DNA of 64,000 nucleotides, taken from positions 4,587 to 68,586 of the IMG/VR virus record IMGVR_UViG_3300014205_002439. One strand, written 5' to 3'. Shown piece after piece: positions 53,580 to 64,000 of this stretch. A program made the position numbers and the translations under genes. Source of the DNA: a virus. Its lineage: Duplodnaviria > Caudoviricetes. The notes under the pieces are model-generated. The model did not search any database. It worked only from the letters and a program-made list of their open reading frames with translations, and was not told where the DNA came from. Numbering within the stretch: position 1 is the stretch's first letter; every line of letters starts with the position of its first letter.

Positions 53580-54512
53580 GTGATTGTCATCATCATGGGG
53601 TACAACGCCGCAGGCAAAACCACACTCGTCAAGAAGTACGTCGATGACGGCTTCTATCGGGTCAATCGGGATGAGCTTGGAGGACGTTTGAAGGATCTGC
53701 ATGAGTACGTTGTTGCGGCACACAAAGAAGGTCATACCAAATTTGTACTCGACAACACCTACCGCAATGTTGAGGCTCGTCGCAAGATCATTGAGACGGC
53801 TAAGACTCTCGGTATGCCGATTCACTGTGTATGGCTCGACACCTCCTTCGAGGATGCACAGTTCAATGCTTGTACCCGTATGGTGAGACAGACCGGTATT
53901 CTGTACGGCCCGGCTGAGTTCAAGAAGACGACTGATCCGAATCTCTTTCCGCCGGTCGCCTTGTTTGGTTATCGGAAGGAGTTCGAGAAGCCGACAATGG
54001 CTGAGGGATTTGACTCAATTGAGAAAATCCCATTTGTCAGAGTCAAAGATCCTGCGTATAAGAACAAGGCTTTGATTCTGGATCTTGATGGGACTGTTCG
54101 GAATTCAACGGGGCCAGAACCCTACCCTTTGACTCCGAACCATATCGAAATCCTGCCCGGTCGGAGTGAGCTAATCCAGCAGTACCGAGACAAAGGGTAC
54201 ATCATCGCAGGGGTGTCCAATCAAAGTGGTGTTGCCAAGAAGAAATTGACCCTTGCCGACGTGGATCTCTGTATCAAACGGACCTGCGAACTGTTGAAAC
54301 AAGAGATCGATGTTTTGTATTGCCCGCATCAAGTTCCGCCTGTGTCTTGCTATTGTCGCAAGCCACATCCGGGACTTGGCGTGGTTTTGATTGAGAAATA
54401 CAAACTCGATGCTGAACAGTGTATTTTTGTCGGCGATCAAACCACCGATGCAACTTTTGCAGAGCGGTGTGGATTTCAATACCAGCATCCTGATCAATTT
54501 TTTGGAGGTTGA
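53580..54512 (+). CDS. P-loop kinase fused to HAD-IIIA phosphatase (PNKP/GmhB-like)
   Basis: GYNAAGKT, VNRDEL, VLDNT; DLDGT, VSNQSG, CPH...CYCRKP, FVGD. Confidence 0.88.
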   Translation: MIVIIMGYNAAGKTTLVKKYVDDGFYRVNRDELGGRLKDLHEYVVAAHKEGHTKFVLDNTYRNVEARRKIIETAKTLGMPIHCVWLDTSFEDAQFNACTRMVRQTGILYGPAEFKKTTDPNLFPPVALFGYRKEFEKPTMAEGFDSIEKIPFVRVKDPAYKNKALILDLDGTVRNSTGPEPYPLTPNHIEILPGRSELIQQYRDKGYIIAGVSNQSGVAKKKLTLADVDLCIKRTCELLKQEIDVLYCPHQVPPVSCYCRKPHPGLGVVLIEKYKLDAEQCIFVGDQTTDATFAERCGFQYQHPDQFFGG

Positions 54513-63294: not shown

Positions 63295-63831
63295 ATGAAT
63301 AGGTCTGATGCTTTGTATTTGGTTCCGAGTCAATTCACCTTCGGTTTTTGTCGCAAGACGAAACCCATTCGAGCCAAGCACATCACTGCTGTGCTGTCGG
63401 ATCGAAAACTCCAAACCAAGATGCTTGTCGATACGTTCGAAGGCAAAGAGCCTTTGGGCGAGCACGTCATGATCTGTCTTGGAGAAGCGGGGGATTGCTG
63501 GCAGCAGGGGCCGAACAAGCTGGTTGCCAAGTACAACATCGACGGAGTTGACTACGACGGATGGCTTCTGTGTTCACCGAAGCCGGATGTTATGGTGAAC
63601 TACAAGCAGGTTAATGAACCCAACTTTTGTATCCAAGGTAGCTACGGCGAAACTGCCGAAGTCAAGGTTTGGGGTAATGGCCCTGAGCCAGAAACAAAGA
63701 CGATGGAGAAGATTCAGTTTGGCGAGGCTGGGGACTATGTTCTCCAGAGTCAACAGGATCTCAAAGACTTCTGGATCGTCAAACGGCGGTTCTTCGAGAA
63801 CACCTATGACATCGTTTTGGAGAACCGATAA
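63295..63831 (+). CDS. PGDYG-like hypothetical protein
   Basis: GEAGDYVL...DFWIVKRRFFENTY. Confidence 0.6.
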   Translation: MNRSDALYLVPSQFTFGFCRKTKPIRAKHITAVLSDRKLQTKMLVDTFEGKEPLGEHVMICLGEAGDCWQQGPNKLVAKYNIDGVDYDGWLLCSPKPDVMVNYKQVNEPNFCIQGSYGETAEVKVWGNGPEPETKTMEKIQFGEAGDYVLQSQQDLKDFWIVKRRFFENTYDIVLENR

Positions 63832-63839
63832 GAGATTGT

Positions 63840-64000
63840 GCTAAAAGTTCCTAGGTTATCGCAGTAGCGAAAGCTATTGAGGAAGTTCGGGACCATTTTG
63901 CTGGACGTGGGAGGGCGTAAAAACCCGTTATCACCACGGAGGTGGCAAGCCGCACAGCCTGAGTGGGAAAGCAACACGATGAAGGCGGGTAGGTGCAGCC
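63840..64000 (+). ncRNA. rnpB: RNase P RNA-like gene, 5' part (truncated by window edge)
   Basis: GGUUAUCGC (P2-like), CAGUAGC-GAAA-GCUAUUG (P3), GAGGAAGUUCGGGACC (CR-I/P4/P5), GGGAAAGCAACAC (CR-II-like), UGAAG (CR-III-like). Confidence 0.65.

Follow-up and report, generated by a model that had tools for sequence, protein, structure and literature searches.

New tRNAs are trimmed by RNase P RNA, one of the two universal ribozymes; to our knowledge, its gene has so far been considered to belong to cells and organelles. A P15-P16-P17 arm with a P6 pseudoknot is the hallmark of the bacterial type A form and is absent in type B, while CR-II and CR-III of the P7-P14 region read the T-loop and D-loop of the tRNA. 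Natural loss of nearly the whole specificity domain has been described in the type T RNase P RNA of the Thermoproteaceae (Pyrobaculum) (PMC3579882). In vitro, the isolated catalytic domain of the E. coli RNA (Eco CP RPR, Mao et al. 2018) is able to cut substrates, for which it needs a P6-like contact, and removal of the S-domain lowers the efficiency of the E. coli ribozyme (PMC5839562). Here we analysed a 64,000-nt stretch (the window) of a 68,586-nt IMG/VR record with a CheckV completeness of 12%, and found that it ends inside a conserved gene of a huge phage, which specifies an RNA of ~240 nt homologous to bacterial type-A RNase P RNA. Full-text literature searches and the huge-phage survey yielded no account of an RNase P RNA encoded by a phage.

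An RNase P RNA gene at the end of a contig

The end of the window coincides with the end of the IMG/VR contig, and the 3' part of the element is therefore truly missing from the record. The last open reading frame, which encodes 178 amino acids, is followed just past its stop codon by the first base of the RNA element. The portion of the element inside the window gave no Rfam match at the gathering threshold or at E ≤ 10, ARAGORN found no tRNA in it, and its folding energy was ordinary relative to shuffled sequence (z −0.37 on the plus strand and 0.05 on the minus strand). By itself, this fragment is indistinguishable from chance.

A search of public sequencing runs with the stretch listed one DNA run, probably the source sample, and no RNA run. 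Alignment of Logan contigs to window positions 63546-64000 revealed that two strains of ~93% identity co-occur in the landfill sample, and a 4,226-nt Logan contig of the second strain continued past position 63998. The 30 nt that this contig supplied past the window end were used to retrieve a JGI metagenome contig (L019), which spans the whole element and is ~93% identical to the window over the shared part. The full copy occupies 242 nt on the minus strand (L019:11412-11653); the 3' third of the RNA of the window strain is unassembled and is represented here by this 93%-identical variant. An independent ENA contig with an identical 178-aa ORF stops 2 nt before the window end. IMG/VR, ENA and Logan assemblies all break no more than 2 nt apart inside the RNase P RNA gene. 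These breaks probably reflect a strain bubble, which would be why the window ends inside the gene. A contig carrying a homologue of the 178-aa ORF (L024, FUIF01015753.1, which duplicates the start of L023) likewise ends ~480 nt past that homologue inside a tRNA cluster, and resembles another assembly break at RNA genes.

With the full copy in hand, the Rfam model of bacterial class A RNase P RNA (RF00010) aligned over positions 1-367, its full length, with 51.2 bits and an E value of 5.5e-15, and a homologue on a second contig (L021) scored 56.3 bits (E 1.1e-14). Neither reached the curated gathering threshold of 100 bits, because just 43 nt stand opposite ~140 model positions of the specificity domain. 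In cmscan, which reports a single top-scoring family per clan, the L019 copy was assigned within the RNase P clan to bacterial class A. A covariance model built from this phage's own sequence and a hand-drawn structure (R1) matched the window fragment with 186.7 bits over model positions 1-160, with the 3' end cut. The first-pass annotation had proposed, from the letters of the window, a compact phage-encoded RNase P RNA with its 3' part outside the window, and had named as tests the complements of P4, P2 and P1 and a covariance-model hit on an extended contig. The RF00010 match bears out that identification, and all three complements are present in L019 within 85 nt past the window end. A coding function was considered for the same stretch and rejected: each sense frame of all homologues holds at least three stops, and antisense ORFs are not conserved.

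Three homologues were found, two of them on phage contigs 390 and 436 kb in length. Homologues of the 178-aa ORF led to L021, where the RF00010 match directly adjoins that gene, and patterns drawn from the best-conserved stretch recovered the same RNA in IMG/VR phages of 390,039 nt (98% complete) and 435,946 nt (85% complete); a fragment of the 435,946-nt phage carries it as well. R1 matched the homologues with 88.6-120.5 bits, and the RNA was single-copy in each genome. Further searches added no members. The exact 16-mer of CR-I had 16 matches in viral contigs, all by chance, a combined pattern of CR-I, L15 and CR-V had none, and a pattern of J5/15 and L15 returned from viral contigs only L027, L029 and L030 again. 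Across representative genomes of 185,579 bacterial and archaeal species, the pattern of an extra hairpin of this RNA (hairpin X, below) matched once (L031); since the RNA model does not match L031, this was judged a chance match. Blastn against GenBank phage records found nothing similar.

A complete type-A catalytic domain under purifying selection

Comparison of five sequences demonstrated purifying selection on the fold of this RNA. In the five-sequence alignment, 96.1% of pair cells were paired, compared with 72.1% in shuffles and 31-42% in controls with slid partners, and compensatory changes on both sides occurred in 41 of 66 pairs, a number reached by none of 500 shuffles. Because the alignment leans toward the helices that were modelled, the P4 and P6 pseudoknots, which had been left out of the alignment model, offered a fairer test: all 52 of their cells were paired and 9 of their 12 pairs were compensatory. 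RNAalifold found P4 on a plain MAFFT alignment too. The two strains of the landfill sample already differ by compensatory exchanges, with C63894/G63944 replaced by U/A in P5, U63899/A63973 by C/G in P6, and U63964/A63976 by A/U in P17. The RNA is conserved between phages whose recombinases share just 43-47% identity.

Table 1 Positions in the window of the RNase P RNA elements and of the adjoining reading frame
Feature	Position	Strand	Remarks
178-aa ORF upstream of the RNA	63295..63831	+	Listed for genomic context only
Miniature type-A-like RNase P RNA, 5' two thirds (158 of ~240 nt)	63843..64000	+	Model R1; full copy in L019
P1, 5' strand	63843..63850	+	Partner past the window, seen in L019; 7/8 pairs compensatory (helix 1)
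P2, 5' strand	63851..63860	+	Partner past the window, seen in L019 with one bulged C
P3 hairpin, 7 bp, GAAA loop	63862..63879	+	Helix 4; 4/7 pairs compensatory, 97% of cells paired
CR-I (J3/4 and P4 5' strand, the latter 63884-63892)	63879..63892	+	Bulged U at 63887
P5, 5' strand	63893..63896	+	Pairs with 63942-63945; helix 6, 95% paired
P6 pseudoknot, 5' strand, in J5/7	63898..63901	+	Pairs with 63971-63974 in L17
Specificity-domain stub	63907..63937	+	P7-like stem 63907-63910/63934-63937 and small hairpin 63913-63915/63924-63926
P5 3' strand (63942-63945) and conserved J5/15 CAA (63946-63948)	63942..63948	+	
P15-P16-P17 arm	63949..63994	+	P16 and P17 covary (helices 10, 11)
P15	63949-63951 with 63992-63994	+	
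P16	63957-63960 with 63983-63986	+	
P17	63963-63965 with 63975-63977	+	
L15 loop, GGGUA	63987-63991	+	
Hairpin X, first bases	63998..64000	+	Remainder past the window

All parts of a type A catalytic domain are present, namely P1-P5, J3/4 (GAGGAA), J5/15, P15 with the GGU of L15, P16/P17, the P6 pseudoknot, P18, J18/2 and J2/4 (ACAGAA). Cells of the P1, P2 core and P3 helices (helices 1, 3 and 4) were 94-97% paired, with compensatory changes in 16 of 22 pairs (5 of 7 in the P2 core), and the outer three pairs of P2 (helix 2) were just 58% paired. The CR-I-like run GAGGAAGUUCGGG (63879-63891) leads into P4, whose eight pairs were paired in 100% of cells, six of them with compensatory changes, and whose bulged U was invariant in all five sequences. 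P6 is formed by five complementary pairs of 4-mers in the five sequences, again with every cell paired and three of four pairs compensatory. The GGU of L15 was invariant; as P15 is invariant too, its register, given by the Rfam alignment alone, is provisional.

Just 45 nt separate the two strands of P5, and they hold a P7-like stem and one small hairpin (helices 7 and 8), both 100% paired and with compensatory changes. P8-P14 and the CR-II/CR-III module are absent, and this stub stands in their place. Past the window end, L019 carries hairpin X, an extra 21-nt hairpin between P15 and P18 that does not occur in the Rfam consensus and is the most conserved stretch of the family, seen in L019, L021, L027 and L029; base 63999 within it differs between the window and the L019 variant. 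There follow the P18 hairpin with a GCAA loop, AGAUAAAUG (J18/2), the P2 complement, ACAGAA with the P4 3' strand, the P1 complement, and a 14-bp terminator-like hairpin with a U run. J18/2 was invariant, the P18 loop was GCAA in three of four lineages, and J2/4 read ACAGAA in two of the four full-length sequences (this phage and L021) and was variable in the other two.

This structure modifies several readings of the first-pass annotation. The 7-bp P3 with its GAAA loop is seen directly in the sequence, just where it had been placed. CR-I had been taken to be one A short of the bacterial consensus; it is in fact of consensus length, and the P4 3' strand carries changes that compensate its two substitutions. 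The partner first offered for P5, the GGU close to the window end, is the 3' strand of P15, P5 being closed by a nearer strand (Table 1). A reduced specificity domain had been concluded from GGGAAAGCAACAC-GA-UGAAG, read as closely spaced CR-II and CR-III motifs; these letters form P17, L17 and P16 of the catalytic domain, so that the conclusion holds and the route to it does not.

Phage context and possible function

The window carries a phage-type replication module, with PHROG matches to a DnaB-like helicase, PolA, a UvsX-like recombinase and helicases. The recombinases of another fragment and of the 436-kb phage share 43-47% identity with the one encoded here, and together these genes place the RNA in a large phage. 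The relatives of 390 and 436 kb encode 46 and 62 tRNA genes, respectively. Many spacers in their tRNA arrays (L032 and L033, G003:164500-196000; L035, G002:36000-48000) are 3-8 nt long, and a 3' CCA, with which the conserved GGU of L15 would pair, is encoded by none of the 71 tRNA genes read in the relatives. Almost all of these array genes are followed by a T, and one tRNA gene of a relative has a TCA anticodon (called SeC by ARAGORN) and is a possible UGA suppressor. No tRNA gene was found near the RNA in this phage, either in the 68.6-kb record or in the 11.4 kb downstream in L019, so the tRNA cluster that the first-pass annotation had suggested looking for downstream is absent over that distance. 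No rnpA gene (PF00825) was detected in the record (G000) or in the relatives G001-G004, which include the 98%- and the 85%-complete genomes.

The genes flanking the RNA differ in each phage. Sigma-70-like promoters stop 2-3 nt 5' of the RNA in L030 (11 of 12 matches) and in L021, and a terminator lies directly 3' of it in L030; no sigma-70-like promoter was found 5' of the gene in this phage. The upstream 178-aa ORF has just four homologues, one of which adjoins the RNase P RNA of another phage in L021 (L021:3001-3495) and another of which sits within a cluster of at least 10 tRNA genes (L023:3001-3603). It belongs to no Pfam family, a search of viral contigs with it gave no match, and it has no homologue in G001-G004, both large relatives included. 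Its AlphaFold model (pLDDT 79.6) is mostly beta; Foldseek against the PDB gave nothing, and the best hit of a wide structural search had a Z score of 3.3. With no Pfam family, fold match or homologue in G001-G004, evidence for a partner protein of the RNA was lacking and this candidate was dropped. On the other side of the RNA, the gene 3' of it (L019:10651-11412, minus strand) encodes a J-domain protein with an HPD motif, the N-terminus of which (MKSFAQFFLE) fits an N-terminal motif noted in the first-pass annotation for further proteins of the phage. The terminator-like hairpin overlaps the start of this gene, with the ATG in its 3' arm and, 7 nt ahead of the ATG, a TAAATA box in its loop. 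Another observation, 9 kb upstream of the RNA gene, concerns a protein (window 53580-54512) that joins a P-loop kinase to a PNK3P/HAD phosphatase domain and resembles T4 Pnk, a polynucleotide kinase-phosphatase of the tRNA-repair type.

We put at about 0.65 the probability that this type-A homologue is an active tRNA 5' maturase that depends on host RnpA. The RNA would be made in infected cells, bind the RnpA protein of the host and, as an active ribozyme, cut the 5' leaders from the phage's own many tRNA precursors during infection; use of host RnpA is proposed because the near-complete relatives carry no rnpA. With the reader of the tRNA elbow absent, recognition and choice of substrates would fall to the contacts of the catalytic domain with acceptor stem and leader and to the protein. 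The tRNA sets of the two large genomes that carry the same RNA count for this reading, as do the transcription signals around the RNA in L030 and L021 and the in vitro cleavage by the E. coli catalytic domain alone (PMC5839562); counted against it are the lack of a tRNA gene nearby and of a promoter-like site in this phage, the lack of CCA-encoding tRNA genes, the Rfam score at half the curated threshold, the use of a 93%-identical variant for the 3' third, and the drop in efficiency of the E. coli ribozyme when its S-domain is removed (PMC5839562).

Invariance of the residues for catalysis and substrate docking bears on the possibility that the RNA is a decoy, titrating host RnpA and thereby shutting down or redirecting host tRNA maturation, instead of a working enzyme. 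In established structures the bacterial protein contacts J18/2 and the P2-P3 region, and this RnpA-binding face is conserved in the phage RNA, as a decoy would have it; the S-domain, which normally gives affinity for tRNA, is lost, and no rnpA was found in the phages. Yet the bulged U of P4, J3/4 and the GGU of L15 are also invariant, and covariation has kept P6, a contact that boosts catalysis by an isolated C-domain (PMC5839562). A sponge would need neither the catalytic residues nor P6, and we regard it as quite unlikely. Without the T-loop reader, the RNA might instead be an active ribozyme that mainly cuts elsewhere, at sites resembling hairpins or tRNAs in operon transcripts or in mRNAs of the phage or its host, rather than one for general maturation of tRNAs. 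The distance of the gene from tRNA genes in this phage and its changing neighbours among phages fit such a role, as does the cutting of model hairpin substrates by isolated C-domains (PMC5839562), but each near-complete genome with this RNA holds a very large tRNA set and no candidate for an alternative substrate emerged, so that other main substrates appear unlikely.

Much of the interior of cellular RNase P RNA is deleted here; this, the Rfam score under the threshold and the classification of one relative as a provirus might point to an inactive, decaying relic of a captured host rnpB. This explanation is strongly disfavoured and carries very little probability, since the RNA is full length from P1 to P1, persists across phages with such diverged recombinases, shows its compensatory changes even between two strains, and is a single-copy gene with its own promoter and terminator in relatives. 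An attachment-site fragment, considered alongside the relic, was ruled out, the gene being complete from P1 to P1. It is just as improbable that the contig is cellular, for example from a bacterium with a reduced genome, and that the RNA is its own unusual rnpB. The record is only ~12% complete and the window shows no virion gene, as this explanation would expect, but IMG/VR lists it as viral, it has the phage-type replication module, and its recombinase matches that of the 436-kb, 85%-complete phage with the same RNA; moreover, no rRNA, tRNA or rnpA is present, and hairpin X is absent, bar the one chance match, from the representative genomes of the 185,579 species.

An RNA-based tRNA maturase working with host RnpA is thus the reading that we carry forward, and a virus-borne RNase P RNA would lengthen the list of translation-related functions of huge phages. 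With slightly less than even odds, we further propose that huge phages carry a working RNase P in which hairpin X partly replaces the lost domain, and with which their CCA-less tRNA arrays are matured without relying on the supply of host rnpB. If true, this would amount to two firsts, an RNase P encoded by a virus and a natural RNase P RNA of bacterial type that lacks a specificity domain, and hairpin X would act either in substrate docking or as the binding site for a protein of the phage or the host. The finding raises the question whether a phage RNA subunit takes over host RnpA during infection. It also offers a natural experiment on the minimal RNase P RNA, a type-A catalytic domain of 240 nt that keeps P6 and has no reader of the tRNA elbow, and a compact ribozyme scaffold for structural work and engineering.

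Comparison with known RNase P RNAs

Compared with bacterial type A RNase P RNA (E. coli M1 RNA, rnpB; RF00010), the phage RNA shares the order and the pairing of all elements of the catalytic domain. The type A consensus has 367 positions, whereas the phage RNA measures ~240 nt, with the 45-nt stub in place of P8-P14 and CR-II/CR-III; it adds the conserved hairpin between P15 and P18, and no rnpA was detected in the phage records that carry it. Loss of almost all of the specificity domain is common to the phage RNA and type T. Type T, however, is archaeal and cellular and works with archaeal protein subunits, while the phage RNA is a bacterial type-A domain with P6, P16/P17 and P18. Eco CP RPR is, like the phage RNA, a C-domain without an S-domain, and the phage RNA keeps under selection the P6 element. 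The E. coli construct was engineered and falls short of the full-length RNA in efficiency, whereas the phage RNA is natural and comes with a P7 stub and hairpin X.
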